Assembly (NCBI GenBank): GCA_964582295.1
Contig: CAZOQP010000002.1
Location: 82,268 to 146,267 of the forward strand
DNA from: an uncultured Candidatus Saccharibacteria bacterium
GTDB taxonomy: Bacteria > Patescibacteriota > Minisyncoccia > Phycocordibacterales > Zambryskibacteraceae
Direction: 5' to 3'
DNA length: 64,000 bases
The translations under genes were made by a program, and so were the position numbers. This document shows positions 3,109 through 48,899 of this stretch, in pieces (the first letter of the stretch is position 1; each line of letters begins with the position of its first letter). The notes under the pieces were generated by a model. That model did no database searches and was not told the origin of the DNA. It saw only the letters and a program-made list of their open reading frames with translations.

Positions 3109-4974
3109 TTATTGTGTAGCACCTTCTCCGCCAGCCGCGCCTTCACTTGGAGGAGTTTGCGGATTCTGACCACTTTGATTTTGCATTGCTTGGCCAACTT
3201 TTGAAAGCTCATCAGAAAGCTCCTGCGTTGCTTTTTTAATAGCGTCAAGGGTGCCTGTGTCCTTAAGGCCCCGTAGAGCCGTAATTTTGGCCTCTACTGA
3301 TGATTTTAGCTCGGAGGGCACTTTACCCCCTGCATCCTTCAGTGATTTTTCTGAAGTATAGATGAGCTGCTCTGCGAGATTGCGCGCCTCCGCAATGTCT
3401 TTTTTCTGGGCATCCTCGGCTGCATGTGCTTCTGCATCTTTTTTCATTTTCTCTATCTCTTCTTTTGAGAGACCCGACGATGCTTCAATACGGATGGACT
3501 GCTCTTTGTTCGTAGATTTATCTTTGGCTTTTACATTGAGTATTCCGTTTGCGTCAATATCAAATGTAACTTCCACCTGCGGCATACCACGAGATGACGG
3601 CGGAATACCATCCAGAATAAATCGCCCAAGGGATTTATTGTCCGATGCCATGGGGCGCTCTCCCTGCACCACGTGTATTTCAACACTCGTCTGATTATCC
3701 GTAGCGGTTGAAAACACCTGCGAGCGCGATGCGGGTACAGTAGTGTTCTTTTCTATGAGTTTCGTTGCAACTCCCCCCATAGTCTCAATACCAAATGAAA
3801 GCGGAATGACATCAAGAAGAAGGATATCCTTCACTTCGCCTGAAATGACACCGCCCTGAACAGCTGCACCAAGTGCTACTACTTCATCTGGGTTGATGGT
3901 TTTATTGGGCTCCTTGCCGAAGAAATCCTTGACGGCTTTTTCAATGGCAGGCATGCGCGTCTGGCCTCCCACCAAAATAACTTCGTCTATCTCGCCTACC
4001 TTGAAAGGCGACGCTTCCATGGCGCGCTTTGTGATGGTCATGGCTCGCTCCACGAATTCACGCGAGAGCTCTTCCAATGTGGCGCGGCTCATTTTTATAA
4101 GAAGGTGCCGCGGCCCGGAAGAATCAGATGTGAGGAAAGGAATATTAACTTCCGTCTCTGTTGCGGTTGAGAGCTCAATTTTTGCTTTCTCAGCTCCCTC
4201 GTCCAAACGCTGGAGGGCAAGAGCATCTCCGCGCACGTCAATCCCCGATTCCTTTTTGAATTCATCCGCAAGCCAATTGATTATTTTCTGATCAATATCT
4301 TTTCCGCCGAGATGCGAATCCCCGTCTGTTGATTTAACTTCAACCACATCATCTCCCACCTCAAGAATGGAAACATCAAATGTTCCACCTCCGAAATCGA
4401 AGACCGCTATTTTTTCGTTCTTCTTTTTATTGAAGCCGTAAGCAAGAGCAGCTGCAGTAGGCTCGTTTATGATGCGCTTCACATCAAGGCCAGCAATGGC
4501 GCCAGCGTCTTTAGTAGCTTGCCTCTGGGCGTCGTTGAAATATGCCGGTACTGTGATAATGGCTTCTGTTATTTTTTCTCCGAGCTTGGCCTCAGCGTCC
4601 GCCTTAAGCTTCTGCAATATCATGGCAGATATCTCTTCTGGACGATATTTCTTGTCGGCCATAGTGATAAGCACTCCGCCATTCTCCGATGCTGAAACTT
4701 CAAAAGGCACAATAGCCTTGTCTTTCTGCACAGCCGGGTCATCAAATTTGTGCCCGATAAAACGCTTTATTCCGAAAATAGTGTTCTTTGGATTGGTTAC
4801 CGCCTGGCGTTTAGCCAAAAGACCCACCAGTCTTTCGCCGGTTTTTGATACGGTAACAATGGAAGGGGTCGTGCGTGCACCCTCCGCATTTTCAATTATT
4901 TTAGGAGCTCCAACTTCCATCACCGCAACAGCGGAGTTCGTGGTCCCGAGATCGATGCCGATTATCTTAGTCAT
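3109..4974 (-). CDS. dnaK: chaperone DnaK (Hsp70)
   Basis: [15 protein letters not shown] and [10 protein letters not shown] Hsp70 signatures. Full length at 621 aa. Confidence 0.97.
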
Positions 4975-21123: not shown

Positions 21124-23961
21124 CTACTCAATAACGATGCTCGCCACCTTCCCGGGTACGTATATGAAGCGTTTAAAGGGGCCTGTAAGGAACTTTTTAA
21201 GGTTTAGGGAATTTTCTATTGCCTTTCTCACGTCATCTTCCGAAGCATTCGCAGCAACTTCCACCACTCCCCTTGTTTTGCCGTTTATCTGCACAGCCAC
21301 TTTCGCTAAAACATCTTCCGCGACACTTTCCGCCTGCGGCCACTCTGCTTCACTCGCTAATCCTTCACCTCCGCTCTTTTCCCACAGTTCTTCCGCTATA
21401 TGAGGTGCAAAGGGAGCAAGAAGAGAAATAAAACGCTTAAAATCTTTTTGGGAAATATTCTTCTCCTTTTCCCACGTGTTCACAAGGATCATAAGTTGGG
21501 AAATGGCAGTATTGAAACTCATGCTTTCAATATCCCGCGAAACTTTCTCTATTGTTTTTTCAAGAATAGATGTGTCTGTAAGCGGAACAGGGGTATCACT
21601 AACTTTCTCTGCAAGGGCATACACTCGCTCCAAAAAACGTCGCGGTCCTACAATGGAATCCACGGACCAAGAAACCGCTTGTTCAAAGGGACCGATGAAC
21701 ATTTCTGCTATGCGCAAAGTGTCTGCCCCGTGCTTTTTAACTATCTCATCCGGGTTTATGACATTCCCCCTCGATTTAGACATCTTCTCGCCGCCTTCAG
21801 CCAAAATAAGGCCGTGGGAGGTACGTTTCTTGTATGGCTCATGTCCCAGAACCAGTCCCTCGTCAAATAAAAATTTGTGCCAGAAACGGGAATATAAAAG
21901 ATGAAGTGTTGTGTGTTCCATTCCACCGTTATACCAATCAACAGGCAACCACTTTTCAAGTGCTTCTTTGGAAGCAAATACTTTTCCATTATGAGGGTCG
22001 CAATAACGATAAAAATACCAGCTGGAACCAGCCCAGTTTGGCATCACATCTGTTTCTCTTTTAGCCTTACCTCCGCATTGCGGGCACTTCACATTCACCC
22101 ATTTATCAATTGCCGCGAGCGGTGATTCACCGGTATCTGTCGGCTGATAATTTTTTACTTTAGGCAGTTCAACGGGAAGATCTTTTTCTGGCACTGGAAC
22201 AACCCCGCATTTTTCACAGTGAATGACAGGTATCGGCTCACCCCAGTATCTCTGCCTGCTGAATATCCAGTCACGGAGTTTGAATGTGGTCTTTTTTTCT
22301 CCGCCGACAAATTTTATGATCTCGTCTTTTACATCAATTGAATTCCCACCATTGAATTTATCTGAATTCACAAGAACTCCGGCTTTTGTATATGCTCCAT
22401 TTTTGGAATTCATTTTAATACCCCATTCCCCCACTTCTGCGTGAGTCATGACATTGTAATTCAGCTCTGATTTATTGAGCCAAATTATGTCGTGATTATT
22501 TTTTTCCTCTTCGTTCAATTCTACCTGCTCATGATCAATGAGGTCGAAAACCACCGCCCTTGTAAAAGCCACCCTGTTTTGATCTTTATGCGCGGCAAAA
22601 TATTCTGCCCTCACTGTCCCCTCGAGAACTTTTATAAGTTTCAAATTAATAAAACCTGTTTCCTCCCGCACTTCTCTTTTTGCTGCCTCCACGATATCTT
22701 CACCATCCTCCACACCTCCCATTGGAAATGTAGTCCACGGAAAATTTCGCCACTTTATTGCAAGATATTTTCCGGTTTTCGGATCTCTGACTATCGGGTG
22801 AACATTTTTTCTTTCTACTACTGTTTTTCCTGAAACTGGCGGATTCTTTTCATCAATGATATTCGGCACGATCACCTCCTTTATCGGCAGATCGTATTTC
22901 TTTGCAAATTCAAAATCCCTTTCATCGTGCGCCGGCACGGCCATGATGGCGCCTGTGCCGTAATGAGGCAGAACATAATCAGCTATCCATATTTGGATTT
23001 CTTCTTTGGTGGCCGGATTTACCGCTTTGATCCCTTTTAGCTCTACTCCAGTTTTCTCTTTCCCCTCCGCAGTCCTGTCAATTTCTGTCCTGTTTTTAGT
23101 TTGTACGATATATCGTACAACTTCCTCCTTGTTCTCTATTTTTTCCTGCAATTCTTGCACCATTGGGTGTTCTGGAGCCAACACAAGATAAGTGGCACCG
23201 AAAATAGTATCCGGCCGCGTTGTGAAGATCTTCAAACTTCCTAAATTATCAACTTCAAAATTTATCTCCGCTCCTTCAGACTTCCCTATCCAATTCCTCT
23301 GCTGGGTTTTTACACGTTCCGGATAATCAACGTCATCCAAGTCTTTATCTAAACGTTCTGCATATTTAGTGATGGCAAGCATCCACTGCTCTTTCTCCCG
23401 CTTCTCCACCGGCGTACCACAGCGTTCACATTTTCCGTCAACTACTTCCTCGTTTGCGAGGCCTATTTTATCTTTCGGGCACCAGTTGATAGTAGCTTTG
23501 GCTTTGTATGCCAAACCTTTCTTTAAAAATTGCAGGAATATCCACTGCGTCCATTTGTAGTATTTAGGATCGGTGGTATTTATTTCCCGCGACCAATCAA
23601 ACGACATACCAAGCGATTTGAATTGTTCACGAAAATTATCGGTATTTTGTTTTGTGATAACTCGCGGGTCTTTTCCAGTTTTCAAAGCAAAATTTTCAGT
23701 AGGCAAACCGAATGCATCCCAACCTATCGGATACAGCACGTTGTACCCTTCCATCTGCCTCTTGCGAGTGATGATATCCATGGCTGTATAACCACGCACG
23801 TGGCCAGCGTGGAGCCCGTCCCCAGAAGGATAAGGAAACTCCATTAGGGAATAATATTTCGGTTTATCTGTTTTTTCTTTCGCCTCAAAAATACCGGATT
23901 TTTCCCAGCGTTTCTGCCATTTCTTTTCTATTTTTGAATGGTCGTACTTACTCATAACCAA
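21124..23961 (-). CDS. leuS: leucyl-tRNA synthetase with an inserted Nudix hydrolase domain
   Basis: HAGHVRGY (HIGH), KMSKS, and the editing domain. An extra ~150 aa between LPIKEVIVP and GVLVNSDKFNGG contains the Nudix box GGVEDGEDIVEAAKREVREETGF. Confidence 0.95.
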   Translation of the reverse strand: MVMSKYDHSKIEKKWQKRWEKSGIFEAKEKTDKPKYYSLMEFPYPSGDGLHAGHVRGYTAMDIITRKRQMEGYNVLYPIGWDAFGLPTENFALKTGKDPRVITKQNTDNFREQFKSLGMSFDWSREINTTDPKYYKWTQWIFLQFLKKGLAYKAKATINWCPKDKIGLANEEVVDGKCERCGTPVEKREKEQWMLAITKYAERLDKDLDDVDYPERVKTQQRNWIGKSEGAEINFEVDNLGSLKIFTTRPDTIFGATYLVLAPEHPMVQELQEKIENKEEVVRYIVQTKNRTEIDRTAEGKEKTGVELKGIKAVNPATKEEIQIWIADYVLPHYGTGAIMAVPAHDERDFEFAKKYDLPIKEVIVPNIIDEKNPPVSGKTVVERKNVHPIVRDPKTGKYLAIKWRNFPWTTFPMGGVEDGEDIVEAAKREVREETGFINLKLIKVLEGTVRAEYFAAHKDQNRVAFTRAVVFDLIDHEQVELNEEEKNNHDIIWLNKSELNYNVMTHAEVGEWGIKMNSKNGAYTKAGVLVNSDKFNGGNSIDVKDEIIKFVGGEKKTTFKLRDWIFSRQRYWGEPIPVIHCEKCGVVPVPEKDLPVELPKVKNYQPTDTGESPLAAIDKWVNVKCPQCGGKAKRETDVMPNWAGSSWYFYRYCDPHNGKVFASKEALEKWLPVDWYNGGMEHTTLHLLYSRFWHKFLFDEGLVLGHEPYKKRTSHGLILAEGGEKMSKSRGNVINPDEIVKKHGADTLRIAEMFIGPFEQAVSWSVDSIVGPRRFLERVYALAEKVSDTPVPLTDTSILEKTIEKVSRDIESMSFNTAISQLMILVNTWEKEKNISQKDFKRFISLLAPFAPHIAEELWEKSGGEGLASEAEWPQAESVAEDVLAKVAVQINGKTRGVVEVAANASEDDVRKAIENSLNLKKFLTGPFKRFIYVPGKVASIVIE

Positions 23962-24600: not shown

Positions 24601-25611
24601 TTATATCCTAAACTCAATCACATCCCCATCCTGCACGATATATTCTTTTCCTTCTGTTCTCACCCATCCTTTTTCACGAGCGACAGCATAACTGCCGGCT
24701 TCTAAAAGATTATCGCAAGCCACCACCTCGGCACGGATGAATTTATCTTTGAAATCCGTGTGAATGGCAGTTCCAGCGATGGGAGCCGTTGAGCCGCGTT
24801 CTATAGTCCACGCACGAGTTTCATCTTCGCCTGTAGTAAAAAAAGTAATGAGATCAAGCAGGGCGTAGCTTTCTTTTATTAAACTATCCAAGCCCGTTCC
24901 AAAAACAGGGTCCACTTTCACAAAACGGCCAGGGATACTTGCCGCTATTTCATCCGCCACATTCTCCCCTGCTTCCGATGTATTCAGAATATAAAGAATT
25001 GGCTTCATGGTGAGAAGATGCATTCCTTGGACGATTTTCTTTTCTTCATCTGTTAGCCGCAAAGTATTTGCCATCTCTCCTTTCTTCAAAACCTCCGCCA
25101 CTTTACGAAGTACGGCTTCTTCTGCTATTGCTTCTTTGTTCCCCGCTTTCACATCACGTGCGAGATTACCTAATCGCTTTGTTACGGTTTCATCATCAGC
25201 CAACACCAACTCAAGATTGATAACACCGATATCTGAAAGTGGTTCCACTTTTCCGGCAACATGAATAATGTCGTCATCTTTAAAAGTGCGCACCATTTCA
25301 GCAATAGCATCCACCTCACGAATGTTCTGAAGAAATTTATTTCCGAGCCCCTCCCCTTCCGATGCACCTTTCACAAGTCCTGCGATATCCACGAATTCAA
25401 CGACCGCCGGAATTGTTTTAGGAGATTTGCTTAACTCCGTGAGTTTCCCCAAGCGTTCATCCGGTACCGGCACAATGCCCACAGATGGATCAATAGTACA
25501 AAAAGGATAATTCTCCGCTGGCACGCTCTTTTTCGTAAGTGTATTAAAAAGCGTGGACTTCCCCACATTCGGTAGGCCGACTATTCCGATGCTTAGAGCA
25601 GAATAAGACAT
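24601..25611 (-). CDS. ychF: ribosome-binding ATPase YchF (Obg-like)
   Basis: IGIVGLPNVGKSTLFNTLT P-loop and the C-terminal TGS-like IVQDGDVIEFRI. Confidence 0.9.
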   Translation of the reverse strand: MSYSALSIGIVGLPNVGKSTLFNTLTKKSVPAENYPFCTIDPSVGIVPVPDERLGKLTELSKSPKTIPAVVEFVDIAGLVKGASEGEGLGNKFLQNIREVDAIAEMVRTFKDDDIIHVAGKVEPLSDIGVINLELVLADDETVTKRLGNLARDVKAGNKEAIAEEAVLRKVAEVLKKGEMANTLRLTDEEKKIVQGMHLLTMKPILYILNTSEAGENVADEIAASIPGRFVKVDPVFGTGLDSLIKESYALLDLITFFTTGEDETRAWTIERGSTAPIAGTAIHTDFKDKFIRAEVVACDNLLEAGSYAVAREKGWVRTEGKEYIVQDGDVIEFRI

Positions 25612-27190
25612 TGCCTACGCGACTAACTGGTATGTTTCCATATACTTTTAATTCTTTTTGGTTTCCTACAATTCTATCAATCGTGTTCAATACTATCTCC
25701 CGTTTAAGCCCGAAATTCAAGTCCTTAAACACTTCACTCGCCTCTTTAGTAAATTCTTCGATCTCTGACTTATTAGGAATACCGAGAGAATTACTGTGGT
25801 TTCTCTCCTCTTTAGCTTTAGCCATTTGGGTCTCTACAGCTTCAATTCTCTCTCTTAGAGGGACCGTGTAATCCTTAAGCTGCTCGAGAGTAAACACCCC
25901 AGCACCATAAGCCTTGTTATATCTTTCTTCCTGCTCTTTGAGCTTCCTGACTTCTTTTTCAAGATCCTTAATATCAACCGAGGAACTTTCCGACTTCGAC
26001 TGCTGACCATTAAGCCAACCTTCGGCTTGTTTTAGTAAAAGTTCAGGCGAACTCATCAGCCCAGCTATTTTCTGCCACACGAGTTTGTCAGCTACCTTGG
26101 CACTCAAGCCCCCTTCAACACATTGGGTCGGAAGAGGAAATTGTTTGATCCTGTCATTACATCGGTAGTAAAGATAACGTCCACTTTTAGGACCACATCC
26201 GCATCTCCTAGATCCACAAGTGCACCACATCTTATTAGCCAGAAGAAATTCGTTCTTCCTGTTTCTTTTTGCTAAAGCAAAATTGGCTTCAAGTTGTCTA
26301 CGGGTGCGATCAAATAAATCTTTATCAATGATCGCTGAAATGGGAATGATATACCACTCGGCTTCTGGCCTATCTTTCCTACTAGTCTTTTTCTGCTTTT
26401 TATATTTTTGCTCTTTGTAAGGGTTCTCCGGCACTACAGCATAAGACTTGCCCCAATGTGCTTCTCCTATATATCCCTTGTGGCGAAGCATAGTAGTAAG
26501 AGTGCTTGTTGCCCACACGCCCTTCTTGCTCTTCCTAGGTTTTATTTTCATCTCCATCAACCTTTTCACCACACCCCGCATTGTCATACCTTCATCGGCT
26601 ATCCATTTGAAAATCATTCTGACGACTCTCGCCTCTTCTTCATTGATTTCGTAATAGCCGTGGACCTTCTCGTTCTTGCGAACATAGGTATATCCATACA
26701 AAGCTTCGGTAGTAAGGATATGACCTTCTTTTACTTTTCTTAATTTACCCAGCCTAAAACGCTCAGATATTTTTGCCCTCTCGTATTGAGCGAACAGACC
26801 CTTTACTCCGTGCAAAATCCTATCTTCATCATTTTTTGGAGCAGGAGTGGTTACAAATATCACTTCGATATTTGCTTCTCTGAGTTCATCCATTACCAGC
26901 TCTTGATATGAATACCTACGAGCAAGCCTGTCTGGATCATAGACCAGAACCGCTTCCCACATCTTACTTTTGGCATCTACACGAAGCTGGTCCAAGTCCG
27001 GCCTGGCCAAGCTATCGCCACTCCAACCATCATCTTTATATTCTTTGACTATCGTATAGCCATTCTTTTGAGCAAACTCTTTAACCGCGGCAATCTGAGT
27101 CTGAATAGTCTGATTTTCCTCCTGGTTGGAAGTTGATACTCTGTAATAAGTTGCGATCAGCTTTTTGATTTGTGGAGTGGATGGGTTCAT
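25544..27190 (-). CDS. large serine recombinase (integrase)
   Basis: N-terminal resolvase domain YYRVSTSNQ...LVYDPDRLAR, a recombinase domain, and a C-terminal Cys-rich/coiled-coil region. Confidence 0.85.
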   Translation of the reverse strand: MNPSTPQIKKLIATYYRVSTSNQEENQTIQTQIAAVKEFAQKNGYTIVKEYKDDGWSGDSLARPDLDQLRVDAKSKMWEAVLVYDPDRLARRYSYQELVMDELREANIEVIFVTTPAPKNDEDRILHGVKGLFAQYERAKISERFRLGKLRKVKEGHILTTEALYGYTYVRKNEKVHGYYEINEEEARVVRMIFKWIADEGMTMRGVVKRLMEMKIKPRKSKKGVWATSTLTTMLRHKGYIGEAHWGKSYAVVPENPYKEQKYKKQKKTSRKDRPEAEWYIIPISAIIDKDLFDRTRRQLEANFALAKRNRKNEFLLANKMWCTCGSRRCGCGPKSGRYLYYRCNDRIKQFPLPTQCVEGGLSAKVADKLVWQKIAGLMSSPELLLKQAEGWLNGQQSKSESSSVDIKDLEKEVRKLKEQEERYNKAYGAGVFTLEQLKDYTVPLRERIEAVETQMAKAKEERNHSNSLGIPNKSEIEEFTKEASEVFKDLNFGLKREIVLNTIDRIVGNQKELKVYGNIPVSRVGNVLFCSKHRNSRPTECGEVHAF

Positions 27191-36347: not shown

Positions 36348-36679
36348 ATGTCCTTAGAAGAAAACCTCCAAGAGACCATATGTCGTAAATAACGAAAGCA
36401 TCAAGAAGACGATTACCCAGGTTATTTTCTTTTCTGTGCTCACTTGGATGGATTTGATTGTCTTACGCACAAAGCCCGCCGCCAGGAGCTCTAGGCTTTC
36501 GCCCAGAACGTATAGGTTTCCCCATACGACCATCCAAGGAACCCTGACGACGGGTTTTCTGACTTGGATGGTTTTAGAGCCGTGCCTCTTACGAGGGTTA
36601 GGCTAATTTCCCTACACTTTCACTCACAAGTCAAACTATATTATAATACCCCTATATTGTCAAGGAAAATACGTGGATA

Positions 36680-37711
36680 CTAAAACCAGCTAATCCTTTT
36701 CATCAATTTCTGAGTATTCCCGTGTCTCAAAAGACCTAGGTAAGACTGAATTGTTTCTGTCTTCGCCTCTTTTGCTTGGACAGCATTTAGGGCTCTCCTC
36801 TTAGTTGTAGTCCTTACCACCCGGTGATCAGGAAAATTAACCCAGCCGAGGAAGTCCACTCCAGAGGCGACAGTTTTGGTAAAGACTTTATCCGGGTGAA
36901 GTTCTAGTTTCAATTTTTTCCCAAGAAACTGCCGAATAGTAACCAGGACATTATCCAGCTTCTTCTTATCACCGGAAAGGATAACGAAATCGTCAGCGAA
37001 GCGAATATAGCGCTTGATTTTTAATTCTCTTTTAACAAATTGATCGAGCTCGTTCATATAGATATTTACGAGCAGTTGCGAAGTAAGATTACCTAGTGGC
37101 AATCCCATCCCTTCTTTGACTGGCTGGAAACTATCAACAATCTGATCAAGTAGCCAAAGAATATCCTTGTCAGGAATGTAGTGCTTGAGAATATCTTTCA
37201 GGACGGCGTGATCAATCGTAGCGAAGAACTTCTTTATATCGCACTTCAAAATCCAGACGGTTCTCGTGTGGTTCTGACTCTCGATATAAGCGAAATTCCT
37301 AAATTTCTCTATAGCTTTGTGTGTTCCTTTCTCCAAGCGACAGGAGTAAGAGTCGTGTATAAAAGTCCGGTCGAAAAAGGGATAGAGCACTCTATAAATC
37401 GCGTGATGAAGTAGCCTGTCTCTAACGGCTGCTTTGTGTATATTCCTGGGTTTAGGATCGGAGATATTAAAGGCTTGATAAGGCGAGTGTCGGTAGGTTT
37501 TCTCGGCGAGATCTTTATTTAAAGCTATGATATTACTCATCAAGTTTCGCTCAAAGATCTGCACATCCTTCCTTGAACGCTTACCATTTAGAAACTCCTT
37601 CCAGGCTTGGAGAAGATTTTCAAGAGAAATGATATGCTCATATTTATGAACAAGCCGAATACCCATATAGGTGAGTCTACCCCCCCCCCGCACTTTTGCC
37701 AGTAGTAGCAA
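36680..37711 (-). CDS. DGR-type reverse transcriptase
   Basis: RT motifs: ISDPKPRNIHKAAVRDRL, CDIKKFFATIDH, GLPLGNLTSQLLVNIYMNELD ([I/L]GxxxSQ, typical of DGR RTs), and YIRFADDFVIL (YxDD). About 340 aa with no maturase/endonuclease. The true start is probably the internal Met MGIRLV. Confidence 0.85.
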   Translation of the reverse strand: MLLLAKVRGGGRLTYMGIRLVHKYEHIISLENLLQAWKEFLNGKRSRKDVQIFERNLMSNIIALNKDLAEKTYRHSPYQAFNISDPKPRNIHKAAVRDRLLHHAIYRVLYPFFDRTFIHDSYSCRLEKGTHKAIEKFRNFAYIESQNHTRTVWILKCDIKKFFATIDHAVLKDILKHYIPDKDILWLLDQIVDSFQPVKEGMGLPLGNLTSQLLVNIYMNELDQFVKRELKIKRYIRFADDFVILSGDKKKLDNVLVTIRQFLGKKLKLELHPDKVFTKTVASGVDFLGWVNFPDHRVVRTTTKRRALNAVQAKEAKTETIQSYLGLLRHGNTQKLMKRISWF

Positions 37712-38045
37712 AAGTTAAAAATTGTTATTTAACTTGGATTACTTACCAAAACAATCTGCCAAAAGTGCAGAAATATTCTCTCGGTTTAAGAATTGAGAGT
37801 CTGTTCGTGGAAACAATTGAAGCAGCATCTATCGCTTGGTTTCTTCCCCAGCAGGAGAAGCAACCTTATATCCGTTTAGCCATAAGGAAATGGGACACTC
37901 TCAAAGTCTTACTGCTAATTCTCTGGGAGGCAAAAGGTATCGATAATAAAAAATATATTAACTTATCCGTTCCTATGGAAGAAGTAGGAAGGATGCTTGG
38001 AGGATGGAATGGGCAGATCACTGCTAAACAAAACTCCCCTGCAAG

Positions 38046-38181
38046 AGCAGGAGAGAAATGAAAAGACTTTCGGGGCGAGGAACACGAAACCGTTCTCACG
38101 ATTCCACCTGTTGTCGGAGTTGCCGTTGTAGGCGTTGAGCCACCGGCCTTCGTCGTTGCGGTTGAGACCGAGAACGTTCGG
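38046..38181 (-). repeat. DGR template repeat (TR), 136 bp
   Basis: Aligns to 38593..38728 with 19 mismatches, all at TR T on the given strand (A on the coding strand). Its pseudo-ORF is Asn(AAC)-rich: GNPNVLGLNRNDEGRWLNAYNGNSDNRWNRENGFVFLAP. Confidence 0.8.
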
Positions 38182-39422: not shown

Positions 39423-39788
39423 TTAATCGAAGGGGGTAGAAATTCCTGCTGCGCGTCCTACTTCAAAAATCACCCTCGCTTCTAGTTGTCTTACCCGGTT
39501 GCCGCTTATGCCTCCAAAGTTCTTACCAGTCTCCGCAAGTGTATGTCGGACACCATCTTTTAATCCGTTTCGGAACTCAAACATCTCACAATACCTCTCC
39601 TTAAGTTTTAAGAGGTGCTTTAACTCTTTATAGGGCTGGATGAATGCCTCGGCGACCGGCTTTCTCATAGTTTGATTATAACCCTTGTCAAAGGTATAGG
39701 CGAGTGTTAATCTACTCCTGCGCGGAAATTTTGGCTCTAAGCGGAAATTCTGTTTTTGCTCTGAAATATCCCATATTACCAATGACAA
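39423..39788 (-). CDS. hypothetical protein
   Basis: 121-aa ORF with no motif recognised. Confidence 0.35.
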   Translation of the reverse strand: MSLVIWDISEQKQNFRLEPKFPRRSRLTLAYTFDKGYNQTMRKPVAEAFIQPYKELKHLLKLKERYCEMFEFRNGLKDGVRHTLAETGKNFGGISGNRVRQLEARVIFEVGRAAGISTPFD

Positions 39789-40663
39789 ATACCTATATGA
39801 TGAAAATAAAACCGCTCTTTAGGGACCTCCCTATTGAGCACGTGGAACGCGACCCAGACCAGCCGCGCCGAGATTTCGGAGTTGGCGGAGACCAGAACAG
39901 GCTCCTGAAGTCTATAGAGACTTATGGCATTGAAGAACCTATTAAGGTGAGTGAGGTTGAGAAGGATCGGTATGTGATTGTCGATGGGCATCGTAGATAT
40001 ATTTGCGCCCAGAGATTAGATTTAAAGACCATCCCCTGCCGAATCTATCCAAAGATGACTGATGGAGAGCTTGAGGCTCGAAGATATGAAATACAGAACA
40101 ACCGAAGAAATTGGAAACCTATGGAGAAATCCAACTCCCTCCATAGAATCAAAACCAAGTTTGGTTTGAATACCAATAGAGAGCTTGCGGATGTTTTAGG
40201 TCTCTCGATTACCATTATTGCTAACTCTCTTCAGATTAGAGATGTAAAAGTAGATTATGTAGAGCTGATGGAAAAGTATGGCCTCTCACAAAGCAATCGC
40301 ACTGAGTTTATCCGTCTCAAGAATAAGCTAAGAAAAATAAAGGACCTAGAAATCGACGACATAGTTCAGATCATTTTTGAAAAGACTCAGAACAATGTTA
40401 TCCGAAATGCTAAGGACTTTCGCAAGTTGGGCAAAATTTTCTTGAGAGCTACTGCCAATGAAAAGGAGCTCTACGCCTTTCTTACCGATCCGGATATGAC
40501 TATCGATGAGCTAGATCAGAGGACCATTCAGTCCGGCTTTTCACTCCTTGTCGAACAAGCAATCCAGGCCATAGCTTCAAAGCGTAAGGATGGAATCGCA
40601 TTCAGTTCAAAGGAAAAGACTCTTCTTACTCAGCTTCGTAATCTCCTACAAAAGGCATTCTAG
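39782..40663 (+). CDS. ParB-like nuclease (ParB/Srx) domain protein
   Basis: IEHVERDPDQPRRDFG...LLKSIETYGIEEPIKV...YVIVDGHRRYICAQRL is a ParB N-terminal domain. Start uncertain; alternative ATGs at 39704 and 39794. Confidence 0.6.
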   Translation: MTNTYMMKIKPLFRDLPIEHVERDPDQPRRDFGVGGDQNRLLKSIETYGIEEPIKVSEVEKDRYVIVDGHRRYICAQRLDLKTIPCRIYPKMTDGELEARRYEIQNNRRNWKPMEKSNSLHRIKTKFGLNTNRELADVLGLSITIIANSLQIRDVKVDYVELMEKYGLSQSNRTEFIRLKNKLRKIKDLEIDDIVQIIFEKTQNNVIRNAKDFRKLGKIFLRATANEKELYAFLTDPDMTIDELDQRTIQSGFSLLVEQAIQAIASKRKDGIAFSSKEKTLLTQLRNLLQKAF

Positions 40664-40666
40664 TTT

Positions 40667-42007
40667 ATGTTGTCTATTAGCCAGGCTCGGACTCGAAAAG
40701 CAGTAGCATATTACCGACATTCAGCGGAAGACAAACAAGAAAACTCGGTTGGTATTCAACGTGGGCACGCAGAGAAATTTGCTAAGCAGTTTCAAATTGA
40801 AATAATCCACGAGGAAGCTGACGAGGGTAAAAGTGGCCTTCTCTCAAACAGGCCTGGATTCGAGAAGCTTTTTAACGATTGGATATTAAATGATACTGCT
40901 CCCGAATTTGAGTATGTGCTTGTTTATGACGTATCTCGGTGGGGCCGTTTCCAAGATCAGGATGAAGCTGCCTACTACGAGTTCAGATGTAAGCAAATGG
41001 GCAAAAAGGTCATCTATGTGTCCCGAGGCTTCCCCAAGGAGGAACAACAGCTTATAAGCCACCTACAGACCTCTATAGAGCGTTATATGGCGGCTGAATA
41101 CTCTCGTCAGCTCAGCGATAAGGTCTTTTACGGCTGCGTAAAGGTATCCGAACAGGGATACTCTGCCGGTGGCACTCCCTGCTATGGTATGGCCAGACTA
41201 CTCTTAGATGTAAATAAAAAGCCTATCCGCATACTTAAGAAAGGAGAGCATAAGCAGATTGCCAATGAGCGCGTAACATTTACCCCACTCAATGACAGCT
41301 CTACCAAGGCTATTCAAAAGATGTTTAGGCTTCTGGTGGAGGACTGGTATGACCCGAGCGAAATAGCCAGAGTGCTTAACGAAGAGAAGATTCTTTCAGC
41401 AAATGGTGGAAAATGGACTAGGGATAAAATAATTAAAATACTCACCAATGAGACCTACACTGGTGCCCGCATCTACAACAAAACCTGGCATAGACTTAAG
41501 CAGAAAATGAGACGTAATCCCCGCTCTGAGTGGGTCATCTCTGAAAATGCTTTTCCTGCCGTAGTTAAGCGAGAGATGTTTATCAAAGCCCAGGAGCATC
41601 TCTACTGGCTTATGCCTTCTAAGTGGAAGAGGGGTATCTACACAATCAGGAAGATAAATACTCTCTTTAAGGCAGAGACTCAAGACATTCTTCTGAAGAA
41701 GCAGATTGATGAGGATACTATCTACCACCTGATGAATGAACTACCACTCCTTTTCTGTGTGAGATTTTATCGAGACTCAGTGCCGCATTGGTGCTTTATT
41801 ATTCCTGAAAGAGTAAGAAACTTCGAGAAGGTGCTTGGGGTTAGCGTAAGCATCGACACCTTTGATCCCATCGAAAGAATATTCCTCATCCCAAGTTCTG
41901 ACTTCAACGAAGTAAACTGCCTTGTCTTTTCTGAAAGTGATCCTTGCTTTAAAGATTACATCATCGAGCGAGAGAATGTTAGGGACACGCTTTCAGCAAT
42001 CGTCTAG
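40667..42007 (+). CDS. large serine recombinase
   Basis: AVAYYRHSAEDKQENSVGIQR...LVYDVSRWGR resolvase catalytic domain plus a recombinase domain. Confidence 0.8.
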   Translation: MLSISQARTRKAVAYYRHSAEDKQENSVGIQRGHAEKFAKQFQIEIIHEEADEGKSGLLSNRPGFEKLFNDWILNDTAPEFEYVLVYDVSRWGRFQDQDEAAYYEFRCKQMGKKVIYVSRGFPKEEQQLISHLQTSIERYMAAEYSRQLSDKVFYGCVKVSEQGYSAGGTPCYGMARLLLDVNKKPIRILKKGEHKQIANERVTFTPLNDSSTKAIQKMFRLLVEDWYDPSEIARVLNEEKILSANGGKWTRDKIIKILTNETYTGARIYNKTWHRLKQKMRRNPRSEWVISENAFPAVVKREMFIKAQEHLYWLMPSKWKRGIYTIRKINTLFKAETQDILLKKQIDEDTIYHLMNELPLLFCVRFYRDSVPHWCFIIPERVRNFEKVLGVSVSIDTFDPIERIFLIPSSDFNEVNCLVFSESDPCFKDYIIERENVRDTLSAIV

Positions 42008-42238: not shown

Positions 42239-42634
42239 CTAGTTAAATTGCACTTGAAAACTGTACATCCCCATACTGCAAACCCCCCGAAGCGGCTCCC
42301 CCGCTTTTGGCACACCAAGATCAATGATCTCTTCTCCTCTTTGAGCCAGAACCTTTTTAAAACCAATCGAACGGATCACGAGTGCTGCCGAACAGTCGTA
42401 AGTGCCGTTTGTTTTGATTACGAGTTTCGTGGGGATACCGGCCTGTGCTTCAGATACTTTCGGCCAATATCCGCCTTTTGCATCTACCGTAATGTATTGA
42501 ACGCCATCCTTTATTTCTATATTCTGCACATCCCCATCTCCAGGCCCGCCGTTCTTTGATAGTAAAGCACCAAAAAATATGAGCCCTGAACCGAGAACAA
42601 CTGCGGATATAATGATTGAAGCGGTTTTACTCAT
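42239..42634 (-). CDS. cupredoxin-like small secreted protein (copper operon)
   Basis: N-terminal TM/signal. C-terminal CSAALV...CSMGMYSFQV resembles a cupredoxin-type metal site. Start taken at MSKTASII. Confidence 0.4.
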   Translation of the reverse strand: MSKTASIIISAVVLGSGLIFFGALLSKNGGPGDGDVQNIEIKDGVQYITVDAKGGYWPKVSEAQAGIPTKLVIKTNGTYDCSAALVIRSIGFKKVLAQRGEEIIDLGVPKAGEPLRGVCSMGMYSFQVQFN

Positions 42635-42641
42635 ATTGCAA

Positions 42642-43649
42642 TTATATGTTGAATAAGGGGTTAATAATGCCAAGTCCCGCAAGACCGGCGAGAAGCGCGA
42701 ATATTCCGAGACCTACCACCACAACACCTGCTGATTTAAAGAACAAGGGTGCATGTTTTGAGTGAGCGAATGAAGCGGACCCGAAGGAAAGGAGTACAAG
42801 CATCGGCAAAGTTCCCAGTGCAAATGCGAACATGATCAAGAATCCTGAAAGAAACGAACCGCTTGAAAGAGCGGCTACCTGCATTGATTGCGTAAAGCCG
42901 CACGGCAGGAAAAATGTCCCAAAACCAATGATGAGAGGCGTGAGTGTCTTATGTTCTATCTTTCTGAAGAAATCAAAAATTCCCGATGGCAGCGCAATTT
43001 TATTTTTCGCAAACACTCCGAGTAAATTCAAACCGAGGAAGAGCATCACCACGGAGGCCAGAAGCCCTAGGATGGCTGAAAATGTAAAGCTTATACCTAT
43101 TGCATTGCCGATGAGCCCAAGCACCCCGCCGAGCACAGCGAAGCTCACCAATCTTCCAGTGTGAAAAAGCAGAAAAGTTTTGGTATCGCTTACATTATCC
43201 TGAGATATTTTTGCCGAAAGCGAGAGCACCAGCCCACCAACTATCGCGAGACAGCTTGAAACCGAGGCGATGAGTCCTATCAAAAAACTTGTAGCGGGCG
43301 TCGTCGCCCCACCCAGGCCCAAATTCAAAATACCCGACTTTTGTAAAAGAAAGAACAGAGCAAGGAATCCAAGTCCGATCGGGACGGCCTGCCAAATAAC
43401 ATTATTGTTTTGCTTTTCCGAAGCAAGTTTTTCTACCGACAAGGTGTAGCCGTTCTGCCTAATCTTTTCAGTGAGGATATGGGCGAGCTCCTCCGGGTTC
43501 TTTTCGCTATCAGTAATGATATCAACAGTTTCCCCCTTCAGGTCCACCAGTGCACTTTTTACAAAACTCTCTCCATTTAGAACATTCTCTATCAGCATCT
43601 TGCATGATGCGCAGTGAGTTCCTGAAACATGGAATGTGTATGTTTTCAT
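42642..43649 (-). CDS. HMA domain fused to a CcdA/DsbD-like polytopic permease
   Basis: N-terminal GTHCASC (MxCxxC HMA). Membrane part has Cys in two TM segments (SSCLAIVGG, FLPCGF). Confidence 0.5.
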   Translation of the reverse strand: MKTYTFHVSGTHCASCKMLIENVLNGESFVKSALVDLKGETVDIITDSEKNPEELAHILTEKIRQNGYTLSVEKLASEKQNNNVIWQAVPIGLGFLALFFLLQKSGILNLGLGGATTPATSFLIGLIASVSSCLAIVGGLVLSLSAKISQDNVSDTKTFLLFHTGRLVSFAVLGGVLGLIGNAIGISFTFSAILGLLASVVMLFLGLNLLGVFAKNKIALPSGIFDFFRKIEHKTLTPLIIGFGTFFLPCGFTQSMQVAALSSGSFLSGFLIMFAFALGTLPMLVLLSFGSASFAHSKHAPLFFKSAGVVVVGLGIFALLAGLAGLGIINPLFNI

Positions 43650-43702
43650 ATTATTTTATTTATAGTGATTTATGGTGAGTCTGTCGAACCAGCGCAGTCG
43701 AA

Positions 43703-46000
43703 CTATAGCTTCATAGCTTTGATCCTAAGCGAATTAGAAACGACAGAAACACTCGAGAATGCCATTGCGAGACCCGCGAATACCGGGTTCAGGAGCCAGC
43801 CGAAGATCGGATAAAACACTCCGGCCGCAAGAGGAATACCTAGAACATTGTAGATAAACGCCCAAAATAGATTTTGTTTGATGCCACGCATAGTCATTTT
43901 TGAAAGCTTGATGGCTTTCACTAGCTTTGAAATGTCTCCGCCGAGAAGTGTGATACCTGCTGATTCAATGGCTACGTCCGTACCGGTGCCCATAGCAATG
44001 CCGATGTCCGCCTGTGCGAGTGCTGGCGCGTCGTTCACTCCGTCGCCCGCCATGGCCACCACATTGCCTTGGGATTGCAACTCTTTTATTTTCTTGAGCT
44101 TATCCTCGGGCAACACATGGGCGACCACTTCATCAATACCTACAAGCGACGCCATGTATTTTGCCGCCTTCTCATCGTCTCCTGTAAGCATGACAACTTT
44201 TATTCCGAGCTTATGAAGGTCTTTTACCGCCTGTTTTGATTCAGTTTTTATTTCATCAGCGACCATAACAAATCCAAGGACTTTTTCTTTTGTTGCAAGA
44301 ATGACCGGTGTTTTTCCTTGTGCTGTAAATTTTTCTATCTGAGAAGTGTCAAACGTCACACCGAGTTCCTTCATGAGCTTCGCATTGCCCGCATAATATT
44401 CGACACCTCCAATCGTTCCTTTGATCCCCCTGCCCTGAAGACCTTCAAAATCCGAAATATTTTCTATTTTCATCTGTCCATCTGTCATCCCAGGTTCTTC
44501 CACATAGTTCACGATCGCATGAGCAATGGGATGCTCCGATTTCTTTTCGAGCGATGCGAGGATGGAAACCAGTTCCCTATTGTCCATATCGGAGAGGTTT
44601 TGTATATCAACGAGCGTCGGTTTGCCAATGGTTATAGTTCCTGTCTTGTCGACGATAACTGTGTTCACTTTATGAAGTTTCTCTAATGTGGCTGCATCTT
44701 TTATGAGTATCCCTTCTTTTGCTCCTTTGCCCACCCCCACAATGATCGCTGTAGGTGTGGCCAAGCCGAGTGCACACGGGCAGGCAATAACGAGAACTCC
44801 GACGAACGAGACGAGGCCAAAAGAAAGCGCCTGCGAAAATCCGAATGAGCTTGTGCCAAGCAAAAGCCATACTCCCAACGCGAGAAATGCGATGATAAGT
44901 GTGATAGGTACGAAGACGCTTGATATTTTATCTGCAAGTGCCTGTATCGGAGCTTTGCTTCCTTGCGCCTCTTCCACCATTTTTATGATCTGAGCAAGCA
45001 ATGTTTCCGAGCCGACTTTTGTGGCCTCAAACGTGAACGTGCCGCTTGTGTTTATCGTACCCGCGACAACGCTGTCGCCGACCTTCTTCTGTGTCGGCAT
45101 CGGCTCACCTGTAACCATTGATTCATCTACGAATGACTCCCCGTCGGCTATCACTCCGTCGACGGGGATCTTTGCTCCCGGCTTTATGATGATAAGGTCC
45201 CCGTGTTTTACTTCACTCACTGAAATTTCTATTTCTTTGCCCTCGCGAATAACAAGCGCGATTTTTGCCTGAAGATTCAGGAGCTTCTCAATTGCATCCC
45301 CGGTCTTTATCTTTGAGCGGGCTTCCAGATATTTCCCGAGTGCGATGAATGCAATGACGATTATCGTTACGTCGTAGTAAGTATTTTCCACATTTATAAA
45401 TGGTTTGAGTACATCCTCAAATGCCGTAACGGCAAAGCTGTAAAGAAACGCTGACGCCGTGCCGATACCAATGAGTGTGTCCATATTCGCCTTGCCATAA
45501 CGAAGGAAGCGGTAAAAGCCGAGAAGGTATGGTTTACCCACTACAAAAAGCATATATGTCGCCATGATTGGCAGGAGGTGATGGAAAAACTCCTCCGTGG
45601 TAATACCTATTTCTGGAACTACTCCGTATTTGGCCAGAATCTCCCACCCCATGACAAAAAAGCTGATGATGGCGAGAGGGATCGCTGAGATAACTTTCAC
45701 TCTCATGTCAGCTACTTCAGCAAGTTTTTCCTGTTTTGATTGATTGAGCCCGAGATGTGCCGCATGTTCATCGGCAGACATACCCATTTCGCTTGCACTG
45801 AGAGAATATCCGAGTGGCTCCAGCTTTTTGTTAAAATGTTCCTGGCTTGTCTTGGATTCGTCGAAAGTTATCCTAGCTTTTTCCGTTCCATTATTGACGG
45901 AGATATCATCCACACCGTCAATCTTTTTTACCGTCCTTTCCACAATGGAAGCGCACGAGGCGCAGTGCATTCCTTTTACCCTGTAGTGTGCGCTTTTCAT
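43703..46000 (-). CDS. copA: copper-translocating P1B-type ATPase
   Basis: N-terminal [14 protein letters not shown] ([12 protein letters not shown]), DKTGTIT, and [10 protein letters not shown]. Start taken at MKSAHYRV. Confidence 0.9.
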
Positions 46001-46001
46001 A

Positions 46002-46268
46002 TTATTTGGACTTAAGCTTATAAATTTTAAGGATCTCGCCCGTCGCCTTCTTCTCATCTCCATGTTTCATCTGGTGCATTACATGAGTTTCCAAATGATT
46101 CTGCAGGATAAGACTCCCGACGCCTGAGAGTGCTTCTCTGGCCGCTTCTATCTGGGTAATTATGTCAACACAATACTTTTCTCCGTCCACCATTTCCTCA
46201 ATACCCCTGACCTGTCCGGCAATGATAGCCAACCGGCGCTTTGAGTTTTTCTGTATATCTTTTCTCAT
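46002..46268 (-). CDS. csoR: CsoR/RcnR-family copper-sensing repressor
   Basis: [35 protein letters not shown] is the DUF156/CsoR signature, with conserved Cys and His. Confidence 0.8.
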
Positions 46269-47830: not shown

Positions 47831-48088
47831 ATGGAGAGAAAAGCGAATCCGGCCTTAATGAAGCCCATGACTCTGACAGCAGAGCTTGAAGCGGTTGTCG
47901 GAAAGGGTCCAATGCCAAGAGGTGAAGTTGTTAAGCAGATGTGGGTATATATCAAGAAGCACAATCTTCAGAACCCCCAGAACAAAAGAAACATCTTGGC
48001 CGATGACAAACTGAAGCCAATATTCGGAGGTAAGAGCGAAGTTACAATGTTTGAAATGACAAAACTCGCTTCAGGCCACATGAGCTAA
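47831..48088 (+). CDS. SWIB/MDM2 domain protein
   Basis: LTAELEAVVGKGPMPRGEVVKQMWVYIKKHNLQNPQNKRNILADDKLKPIFG...MFEMTKL is a SWIB domain. Confidence 0.75.
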   Translation: MERKANPALMKPMTLTAELEAVVGKGPMPRGEVVKQMWVYIKKHNLQNPQNKRNILADDKLKPIFGGKSEVTMFEMTKLASGHMS

Positions 48089-48118
48089 AAGGTTTGAACC
48101 CTTATAATTCAAAAACCC

Positions 48119-48146
48119 GCACCTAGGTGCGGGTTTTTGAATGCCC
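48119..48146 (+). terminator. rho-independent terminator aaaaacccgcacctaggtgcgggttttt
   Basis: Perfect stem with flanking A and T runs. Confidence 0.55.
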
Positions 48147-48209
48147 GTTATTCTTTGCTTCAACAACTATTTTTGGGCTATAATCGCCCTTGTTCAGGCA
48201 GGCTTCTGT

Positions 48210-48357
48210 GGGCCCTTAGCTTGGTTGTAGCGTTTCGTGAAATCAACCTAGAAGTGCCCATTGGATAGAAATACATCGATCATGGGCTCTTAGATTGGTT
48301 GTAGCGTTTCGTGAAAGCAACATAGAAGTGCCTGTCGGCGAGAAGTACATTAATTAT
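48210..48357 (+). repeat. two tandem 74-bp units, each beginning with the first ~22 nt of tRNA-Ala
   Basis: Unit 1 (48210..48283) and unit 2 (48284..48357) are ~80% identical. Both start gggcYcttagMttggttgtagcg, compared with gggcccttagcttagttggtagagcg in the tRNA. They are directly contiguous with the intact tRNA. Confidence 0.5.
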
Positions 48358-48433
48358 GGGCCCTTAGCTTAGTTGGTAGAGCGCCTCATTTGCAATGAGG
48401 AGGTCATCGGTTCGAATCCGATAGGGTCCACCA
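48358..48433 (+). tRNA. tRNA-Ala (anticodon UGC), CCA encoded
   Basis: Cloverleaf GGGCCCT-TA-GCTT-AGTTGGTA-GAGC-G-CCTCA-TTTGCAA-TGAGG-AGGTC-ATCGG-TTCGAAT-CCGAT-AGGGTCC-A-CCA. G3:U70 alanine identity pair present. Confidence 0.9.
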
Positions 48434-48458
48434 AATCTGTTAGCATTAGAACCAGTAT

Positions 48459-48899
48459 ATGCAAATTGGAAAAGATTTTATAGGAATCACAACTCCATTT
48501 TACTGCAATGATGGCAAAGGTAATTTCTTGCTTCATAAGCGGAGCAAGAACTGCCGAGATGAGAATGGAAACTGGGACCCCGGCTCTGGAAAACTGGATT
48601 TTGGCATTTCTCTTGAAGAAAATGTATTGCGAGAAATTGCTGAAGAATACGGGTGTAAGGGAGAAATCCAAGAGCGACTCCCTGCACACGATATTTTCCG
48701 AGAGTATAATGGTGTTAAAACACATTGGGTTGCCATACCGTTTTTTGTTAAAGTAAATCCTCAAGAAGTTAGAAATAATGAACCAGAAAAAATTGATGAC
48801 ATGGATTGGTTTAAATTGGGCGAACTACCCCAACCCTTACACACTGGATTTCAGTTCACATTTTCCAAGTTCAGAAATACTTTCGAGAAATATGAGTAG
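48459..48899 (+). CDS. Nudix-family hydrolase (divergent Nudix box)
   Basis: GKLDFGISLEENVLREIAEEYGC approximates Gx5Ex7REUxEExGU. Length 146 aa. Confidence 0.55.
   Translation: MQIGKDFIGITTPFYCNDGKGNFLLHKRSKNCRDENGNWDPGSGKLDFGISLEENVLREIAEEYGCKGEIQERLPAHDIFREYNGVKTHWVAIPFFVKVNPQEVRNNEPEKIDDMDWFKLGELPQPLHTGFQFTFSKFRNTFEKYE

Follow-up and report, generated by a model that had tools for sequence, protein, structure and literature searches.

The locus and its tandem array

Just one tRNA gene lies in the 64-kb window (the whole stretch of DNA that we analyzed), according to both ARAGORN and Rfam: an intact gene for tRNA-Ala(UGC). Proteins encoded on either side of it have Paceibacteria-like matches and assign the window to Patescibacteria. 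Two head-to-tail units of 74 nt each (48210-48283 and 48284-48357) adjoin its 5' end. The upstream neighbor encodes a SWIB/MDM2-domain protein that is 81-89% identical across many Paceibacteria, and the downstream neighbor encodes a NUDIX hydrolase (Table 1).

The hairpin that follows the SWIB gene aligns to the terminator stems of several Rfam leader families; it is terminator-like and would end the SWIB transcription unit. After it comes a putative promoter, P0. A scan for consensus promoters did not report P0, because its -35 hexamer matches at only 3 of 6 positions. P0 weakly resembles the region that precedes tRNA-Ala(UGC) in a related locus, L024 (p = 0.06), and it would function as a promoter. 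The scan reported no site within the units. In unit 2, the hexamer TACATT lies at -12 to -7 from the first base of tRNA-Ala, with a poor -35 region; the hexamer in unit 1 is TACATC.

Table 1. Features at and near the tRNA-Ala locus, with positions in the window.
Feature	Position	Strand	Description
Large serine recombinase	25544-27190		Pfam
ParB-like gene	39704-40663		
Large serine recombinase	40667-42007		Pfam
SWIB/MDM2-domain gene	47831-48088	+	Upstream neighbor, 85 aa; ORF; homologs with PF02201
Terminator-like hairpin	48111-48138	.	A5-CCCGCACC-TA-GGTGCGGG-T5; read from sequence
P0, putative promoter	48155-48184	+	TTGCTT (48155-48160), 18-nt spacer, TATAAT (48179-48184); ends 25 nt before unit 1; read from sequence
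Stub A1	48210-48232	+	GGGCCCTTAGCTTGGTTGTAGCG; copies tRNA-Ala positions 1 to ~26; first 13 nt identical to tRNA
B1	48233-48283	+	51-nt non-tRNA part of unit 1
Stub A2	48284-48306	+	GGGCTCTTAGATTGGTTGTAGCG; has the D-arm changes of A1 and two more substitutions (C5T, C11A)
B2	48307-48357	+	51-nt non-tRNA part of unit 2; last ~18 nt are GAGAAGTACATTAATTAT
tRNA-Ala(UGC), intact	48358-48433	+	ARAGORN; Rfam RF00005, 73.8 bits; G3:U70 pair, encoded CCA end
NUDIX hydrolase gene	48459-48899	+	Downstream neighbor; starts 25 nt after tRNA-Ala

Structure of the units

Tandem Repeats Finder reported a period of 74 nt with 2.3 copies, 82% matches, and 0% indels over 48209-48375, and a repeat search gave 82% identity between units 1 and 2 over 74 nt. 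The repeat search also found three copies of a 19-nt start, TGGGCCCTTAGCTTGGTTG, at 48209, 48283, and 48357 (spacings of 74 and 74). These results confirm the array that had been described in an earlier, sequence-only reading of this DNA, including its coordinates, its phase, and the two 74-nt units that abut tRNA-Ala. When up to 3 mismatches are allowed, there are three occurrences of the 18-mer GGGCCCTTAGCTTRGTTG; the mean for shuffled sequences was 0.05, and no shuffle reached 3. A 22-mer that is common to both units has no other occurrence in the 64-kb window, and the 22-nt identical run between the units is not significant (p = 0.085).

We divided each unit into a start of about 23 nt (A), which copies the 5' strand of the acceptor stem and the D arm of tRNA-Ala, and the remaining 51 nt (B). 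The match between the stubs and the tRNA runs from base 1 onward: it is perfect for the first 11-13 nt, is patchy through the D arm, and then ends. Over these ~23 nt, the stubs are 83-100% like tRNA-Ala, which bears out the match of about 22 nt that the sequence-only reading had placed at the start of each unit. Relative to tRNA-Ala, A1 has A14G and short deletions in the D-loop and stem runs, and the likeness stops at around position 26. Because A1 and A2 contain the same derived differences in the D arm, a single A-B unit must have existed before it was duplicated. The B parts are 78% identical to each other and, in similarity tests, no more like the tRNA than shuffled sequences are, so the earlier description of these remainders as about 80% alike and unrelated to the tRNA also holds.

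Overall, the units differ solely by substitutions: there are 13, nine of which fall in the last 25 nt (p = 0.005 for the best split, or about 0.03 after a permutation correction), and indels are absent. The conservation of the first 49 nt may reflect constraint or gene conversion. An ORF of 34 codons can be read on the minus strand of the units.

Searches for similarity to known RNAs and elements

Neither unit matched the tRNA family (threshold, 29 bits) or any other Rfam family at E ≤ 10 when searched in full context, and the B parts had no such match when searched alone with truncated matches allowed. The Rfam and ARAGORN results for the units thus agree with the earlier claim that the units cannot form a cloverleaf. 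The B parts were no more similar to the 3' part of tRNA-Ala than shuffled sequences were (p = 0.26/0.80 and 0.85/0.97 in two tests). We also compared them to 15 tRNAs from relatives (3' parts, in both orientations): none of the similarities was significant, and the lowest p value was 0.027 in 90 tests. Similarly, there was no significant match to the leaders of relatives, to the fetched loci, to the unit in L023 (described below), or to the rest of the window. By eye, the units seemed similar to spacers in L024 and L019, but shuffle tests did not support this.

More broadly, a 20-mer from the core of the units had only chance matches, within coding regions, in genome and metagenome collections (in an Aquabacter genome and three JGI contigs). 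Patterns from the units had no match in the viral contigs of IMG/VR, BLAST searches with the units against phage records and plasmids found no match, and no relative of the NUDIX protein was found in viral contigs.

Folding was unremarkable for the units alone: the z-scores were -1.1 for unit 1 and +1.0 for unit 2 (-0.3 and +0.4 for the reverse strands). The leader together with the tRNA had a z-score of -2.0. Unit 1 can form a hairpin of 50 nt (z = -1.9), but its counterpart in unit 2 is weaker, because two of the four substitutions within it break pairs without compensation.

We considered several other identities for the units and rejected them. Coding by a small ORF, including on the minus strand, is not supported: there is no ORF of 50 aa or more, and the 74-nt period is not a multiple of three. 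A tmRNA or permuted tmRNA has no support from ARAGORN or Rfam. Mutagenesis by the nearby reverse transcriptase of a diversity-generating retroelement (DGR) does not fit, as the differences between the units are not adenine-specific. A CRISPR-like array would have identical repeats with spacers that are unrelated, but the "spacers" here are 78% identical to each other, and the Pfam matches in the window include no Cas family. A split or intron-containing tRNA would require another fragment of tRNA-Ala or a T-arm-like piece, and the window contains none outside of the tRNA itself; without a complementing 3' piece in the window, the stubs cannot be completed. Finally, a group I intron was considered: according to one survey, the group I introns in tRNAs of Patescibacteria lie in the anticodon loop, at position 35/36 (PMC13011429), and not in the D arm.

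Recombinases in the window

The sequence-only reading also raised the question of integrases. A Pfam scan of 57 ORFs in the 64-kb window identified no member of the tyrosine recombinase/phage integrase families and no Cas protein. It did identify two large serine recombinases. One of these is next to a ParB-like gene; the pair lies 6-8 kb upstream of the array and beside a copper-resistance cluster. Flavodoxin-like and SWIB genes lie between the recombinase and the tRNA. Genes for a flavodoxin-like protein and a SWIB protein also adjoin the tRNA-Ala(UGC) of a relative, L011, which itself has no units, and this argues that these genes are chromosomal rather than the cargo of an element.

The tRNA slot in relatives

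We recovered the corresponding loci from relatives by using homologs of the NUDIX and SWIB proteins. The closest relative of the NUDIX protein is P0002 (88% identical; JGI 3300071325). In every relative that we inspected, there is a tRNA gene upstream of the NUDIX gene, but the identity of this tRNA varies. The window and L024 have Ala-UGC; L013/14 have Ala-GGC, preceded by Val-GAC; L016-L022 have Ala-CGC; L023 has Val-GAC; and L001 has Leu-GAG. In L002, tRNA-Ala(CGC) is upstream, and another gene lies between the tRNA and the NUDIX gene. Despite the different tRNAs, the short spacer from the tRNA's 3' end to the start of the NUDIX gene is clearly alignable among the window, L023, and L013. 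Since the identity of the tRNA varies while its 3' flank remains alignable, the locus is a slot in which tRNAs are turned over. Judging from these comparisons, the NUDIX-linked tRNA locus is evidently prone to recombination.

In an anchored-suffix test, the final 18 nt of B2 could be aligned over their full length to the sequence immediately 5' of the NUDIX-linked tRNA in L016 (p = 0.004) and in L001 (p = 0.006); these p values are uncorrected and are borderline after correction for nine comparisons. This suggests that B, at its 3' end, consists of native 5' flank from the tRNA slot.

A similar layout occurs at the corresponding place in L023, which comes from an independent assembly and whose NUDIX protein is 86% identical. 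There, tRNA-Val(GAC) (75-151) is directly preceded by a single unit of 72 nt (3-74). This unit starts with 12 exact bases of its own tRNA-Val(GAC), and a patchy match continues to around position 27-28. By an arithmetic estimate, the chance of an exact 12-mer within ~70 nt is about 4 in a million. The non-tRNA part of the L023 unit has no significant similarity to the B parts in the window, so the architecture recurs but the sequence does not. In the comparison across relatives that had been proposed along with the first description of the array, a stub layout was found with a different tRNA in L023, and no stub precedes the tRNA in L013, L019-L021, L002, or L011. In L016, L017, and L024, the upstream sequence is too short to score the presence of a stub.

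L001 has another kind of disrupted tRNA gene. At its positions 4213-4501, a tRNA is split into three pieces that enclose two complete tRNA-Val(TAC) genes. A 22-nt stub of a tRNA 5' end, GGGCTCGTAGCTCAGCTGGTTA, precedes these two genes, and the first break is after position ~21. The 3' strand of the D stem and the 5' strand of the anticodon stem of the broken tRNA lie between the two Val genes. The 3' strand of the anticodon stem, the T arm, and the matching 3' strand of the acceptor stem (CGAGCCC) follow the second Val gene. When the pieces were joined, ARAGORN identified a cloverleaf in 4468 of 5046 combinations of boundaries. Each of the insertions is bracketed by GC-rich inverted repeats. 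The 289-nt region has a folding z-score of -4.3, and its minimum-energy fold includes the outer acceptor stem and one of the bracketing helices. Together, the window, L023, and L001 indicate that tRNA genes have been broken in or just after the D arm at at least three loci of this lineage.

Origin of the array

Most likely, the array is a slightly unusual variant of known tRNA-gene debris and is not functional. In particular, we give a probability of about 40% to the view that the units are 3'-truncated tRNA stubs that arose by illegitimate recombination, were amplified once, and now form a functionless leader. The best reading of each unit is a copy of tRNA-Ala that was cut just after the D arm (at about position 26), together with about 51 nt from the 5' flank of the tRNA.

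The array could have arisen as follows. If the end of the D arm was the site of a break or of illegitimate recombination, then repair would have re-copied part of a tRNA-Ala locus (about -51 to about +26) ahead of the remainder of the gene. The product would be stub-flank-tRNA, with one intact gene kept. The stub would then have gained small slippage changes in the D-loop region. The 74-nt unit (stub plus flank) would next have been doubled, once, when the ~23-nt stub took part in unequal crossing-over with the 5' end of the tRNA, and afterwards the two units would have drifted apart by 13 substitutions. Only events that leave an intact tRNA would survive, which would account for the position of the live gene at the downstream end. 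We infer this order of events. The pieces are arranged as stub-flank-stub-flank-stub, with the final stub continuing into the rest of the tRNA; the copies are of equal length, and their bounds lie at a direct repeat that was already there, as is expected from unequal crossing-over.

Lying between TATAAT (48179-48184) and the tRNA, the array probably becomes part of the tRNA transcript, as a long 5' leader; RNase P would remove it by cutting at 48357/48358, and it would then be degraded. The tRNA may also be driven by another, proximal promoter (TACATT) in unit 2. Presumably, the units have no function of their own. None of the three suggestions in the sequence-only reading stands unchanged. 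One of them was that the units are a repeated promoter or leader. Part of this fits, in that the end of B2 resembles a native flank and the array is downstream of TATAAT, but we found no evidence that the repetition itself functions.

The weak point of this explanation is the founding event, which simple duplication does not explain: no unit-like flank precedes the first stub. Indeed, the 74 nt that precede unit 1 show no relation to either unit (p = 0.69/0.97 and 0.36/0.75 in two tests). This is contrary to a simple tandem duplication, so an additional event or a paralogous template is needed. Some other observations also count against a random scar. In two independent cases, the stubs end at about position 26-28 and the periods are similar (74 and 72 nt). 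The units are 18% diverged, yet they have no indel, and their differences are clustered in the last 25 nt. Also, useless DNA is expected to be deleted from a streamlined genome.

Alternative explanations

The alternative that we rank next, although it is unlikely, is that the array functions as a leader by imitating the tRNA's 5' end: a stub might compete for the 3' strand of the acceptor stem, or it might be a decoy for a factor that binds tRNA, and so modulate folding, processing by RNase P, or the level of the tRNA. The identity of the stub does follow the downstream tRNA in two genomes (Ala in the window and Val in L023). The best-conserved part of the stubs is the first 12-13 nt, or the acceptor strand, and conservation within the units is higher over the first 49 nt than after them; with C5T, unit 2 would still form a G-U pair with the 3' strand. 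When the L023 unit is folded with its tRNA, the stub pairs with the tRNA's 3' end in the minimum-energy structure, but the centroid fold retains the normal cloverleaf, and such an alternative pairing is a trivial result of any duplication of the 5' strand. Furthermore, the universal A14 is lost in both stubs, the folding z-scores are not remarkable, the layout is missing from the relatives listed above that lack a stub, and the units in the window do not have a common structure with the L023 unit (a comparison that involves two copies of the unit and just one distant analog). Slightly lower in our ranking, and also unlikely, is that the array is a relic of a nested or split tRNA like that of L001. 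Under this scenario, DNA containing a tRNA was inserted after the D arm, and the outer 3' part later disappeared when it recombined with its identical inner counterpart, which would leave stub-flank-tRNA. In favor of this is the three-piece tRNA in L001: it has tRNA-Val(TAC) genes nested after a break at ~21, inverted repeats, a strongly negative z-score, and pieces that usually give a cloverleaf when joined. However, the tRNA in the window is not followed by any complementing 3' piece, and we saw no bracketing inverted repeat around B1 or B2. The break is at ~21 in L001, as compared to 26-28 here, and L001 is not a close relative (its NUDIX protein is 80% identical).

Another possibility, which was also suggested in the sequence-only reading, is that the units are decayed duplicates of the whole gene: there would have been three abutting copies of tRNA-Ala, of which the two upstream would have lost all likeness in the 3' two-thirds, while gene conversion from the live gene would have kept their 5' ends alike. 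The period is close to the length of the tRNA, with no spacer (74 versus 76 nt here, and 72 versus 77 nt in L023), and tandem tRNA duplicates do occur in the lineage, as with the two tRNA-Val genes in L001. We nevertheless consider this rather improbable. The 51-nt parts lack the features of a tRNA 3' part: they had no truncated tRNA match at E ≤ 10, and they were not significantly similar to any of the 15 tRNAs in either orientation. Uniform decay cannot give such a contrast between a 5' part of ~23 nt that is 83-100% tRNA-like and 51 nt that are unlike the tRNA. The units end with AT-rich sequence like the native 5' flank, not with CCA, and an ad hoc limit to conversion would be needed at the same place in two genomes. 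We doubt even more that the units are scars of attachment sites, left by an element that used the 5' part of the tRNA as its att site, integrated (possibly twice), and shrank to ~51 nt. Partial tRNA genes beside complete ones are a classic signature of integration (PMC9897764). Also, the repeat begins exactly at base 1 of the tRNA, as if an element had restored the gene, and a ParB gene and a large serine recombinase are located 6-8 kb upstream. But just 51 nt separate the repeats, and the 78% identity of the two "inserts" marks them as copies of one another, not as separate integration events. No tyrosine recombinase was found in the window, the flavodoxin-like and SWIB genes that intervene look chromosomal (as in L011), and neither viral contigs nor phages nor plasmids gave a match to the units. 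Serine integrases are not known to leave long direct repeats, and the elements known to target tRNAs nearly always involve the tRNA's 3' part rather than its 5' part. The earlier idea of a fossil of repeated integrase attachment is therefore not supported, given the short gap, the similar inserts, the end of the tRNA that was copied, and the lack of a tyrosine recombinase in 64 kb. Very unlikely, finally, is an artefact in which a metagenome assembler joined strain variants in tandem. The contig is metagenome-assembled, and an independent Logan assembly of SRR6868922 breaks at ~48136 and ~48378. However, the units share at most 22 exact bases, which is too few for joins at the usual k; the junctions between units carry unit-specific bases, and the units differ at 13 positions; and an unrelated assembly, L023, has the same layout with another tRNA.

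Comparison to known systems

The array has partial parallels in several known systems. The closest are the partial tRNA genes that mark the borders (attL/attR) of integrated genomic islands and prophages (PMC9897764); of the features that define this family, the array has just the repeat. As in those islands, a fragment of a tRNA lies in direct orientation beside the intact gene, and the fragment is not a functional tRNA (PMC9897764). Unlike in our array, their repeats bracket kilobases of DNA with an integrase; here, the 5' part of the tRNA is repeated, the inserts are 51 nt and are copied from each other, and no integrase is linked.

The pseudo-tRNAs that form by duplication and random loss in mitochondrial genomes are also similar: they are head-to-tail with a period of about one tRNA, the upstream copies are not functional, and their copy number is explicable by unequal crossing-over. 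In contrast, the B parts have no trace of a tRNA 3' end, the likeness to the tRNA stops sharply after the D arm, and no unit-like flank precedes unit 1.

Disrupted tRNA genes in archaea and algae are broken at defined places, including the D-arm region, and their pieces are joined via complementary flanks (PMC3978253, PMC3293823). The three-piece tRNA in L001 resembles these genes, but the window has no complementing 3' piece. Such disrupted genes need the splicing endonuclease and ligase of archaea and eukaryotes, enzymes that are not known in Patescibacteria.

The array also resembles the tandem promoters or leaders of stable RNAs, in that a promoter-proximal sequence is repeated before the tRNA, the end of B2 is flank-like, and there is a -10-like hexamer. 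However, the -35 regions of the array are poor, and we know of no tandem promoters in which the mature RNA's first ~23 nt are copied.

Implications

The recurrence in L023 with a different tRNA, along with the nested tRNA genes in L001, hints at a process that is specific to this lineage. A previously undescribed process in Patescibacteria of the Paceibacteria type might insert or re-copy DNA at or after the D arm of tRNA genes while keeping a working gene, and the resulting stubs or split genes could be functional. We think that this is about as improbable as decayed whole-gene duplicates. Its products would include the in-phase 5' stubs that match the adjacent tRNA (as in the window and L023), the nested tRNAs of L001, and the turnover in the NUDIX slot. 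If the recurrence does reflect a specific process, then it would be new bacterial biology, with tRNA genes being remodelled or expressed from interrupted templates; and if the products are functional, then a bacterium would have intron-like or split tRNA genes, or leaders that mimic the 5' end of a tRNA. This can be tested directly with existing metagenomes and metatranscriptomes. If the array is only a scar, then it is a reason for caution in annotating tRNAs and in using island finders that take tRNA fragments as att sites, and it marks tRNA loci as hot spots of recombination in reduced genomes.

Other features of the window

Besides the genes discussed above, the window includes a DUF4383 gene without a close relative (the next best match is 55% identical). 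It also contains a DGR-like reverse transcriptase, an Avd-like gene, and a LOOT RNA.

A tRNA slot upstream of the NUDIX gene

In the window (junction 48424-48470) and in loci L001, L013, L016, L019, L023, and L024 of relatives, a tRNA gene lies directly 5' of the NUDIX gene. The identity of this tRNA differs among these loci (Ala-UGC, Ala-GGC, Ala-CGC, Val-GAC, or Leu-GAG), and the short spacer between the tRNA and the NUDIX start codon is still alignable among the closest relatives. The position adjoining the NUDIX gene is a tRNA "slot" with turnover.

One of these relatives also carries a unit like those of the window. At L023 3-151 (NCBI GCA_040960175.1, JBFOMP010220643.1), a 72-nt unit abuts tRNA-Val(GAC), 5' of the NUDIX orthologue; the layout is the same as in the window's array, and the unit's first 12 bases match the adjoining tRNA exactly. 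Because the contig begins just 2 nt 5' of this unit, there may be additional units upstream. Short D-arm-like strings were also seen immediately 5' of tRNA-Val(GAC) in L013 (TAGTTCAGTTCGG, 140-152) and of tRNA-Ala(UGC) in L011, another locus from a relative (TTAGCTCTTGTG, 3743-3754). They might reflect smaller and more ancient duplications covering some of the 5' portion of a tRNA, or the resemblance may be coincidental.

An independent assembly (Logan contigs L007 and L008, from SRR6868922) apparently represents the same organism as the window. This assembly is interrupted within the terminator palindrome, at about 48136 of the window, and within the tRNA, at about 48378, so neither contig contains the repeat region.

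A tRNA gene in three pieces

L001 (NCBI GCA_030700065.1, JAUYKH010000018.1) contains one tRNA gene that is split into three pieces, with complete tRNA genes nested in the gaps and GC-rich inverted repeats flanking both gaps. Once joined, the pieces fold into a cloverleaf, and the folding z-score of the entire region is -4.3. The arrangement may be a relic; alternatively, it may be a bacterial case of a split tRNA or one with an intron-like interruption.

Other features of the window

In the window's leucyl-tRNA synthetase, the editing domain is closely followed by an inserted NUDIX domain (residues 390-502). Elsewhere, a retroelement-like module resembles a diversity-generating retroelement. 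There are also two large serine recombinase genes, the second of which adjoins a ParB-like gene and lies upstream of a copper-resistance cluster; this may be an integrated element.

Features of L001 and of the window
Feature	Locus	Position	Strand	Remarks
Three-piece tRNA	L001	4213-4501		pieces at about 4213-4234, 4343-4357, 4466-4501
Nested tRNA-Val(TAC), two	L001	4247-4320, 4373-4446		complete
Leucyl-tRNA synthetase	window	21124-23961	minus	
Serine recombinase, first	window	25544-27190		
Retroelement-like module	window	36491-38061		
LOOT RNA	window	36491-36604	minus	71.5 bits; just downstream of reverse transcriptase
Reverse transcriptase	window	36680-37711	minus	
Avd-like gene	window	37696-38061		below Pfam's cut-off
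Serine recombinase, second, with ParB-like gene	window	39704-42007		
Copper-resistance cluster	window	42239-46268		cupredoxin, DsbD/HMA, P-type ATPase, CsoR-like repressor
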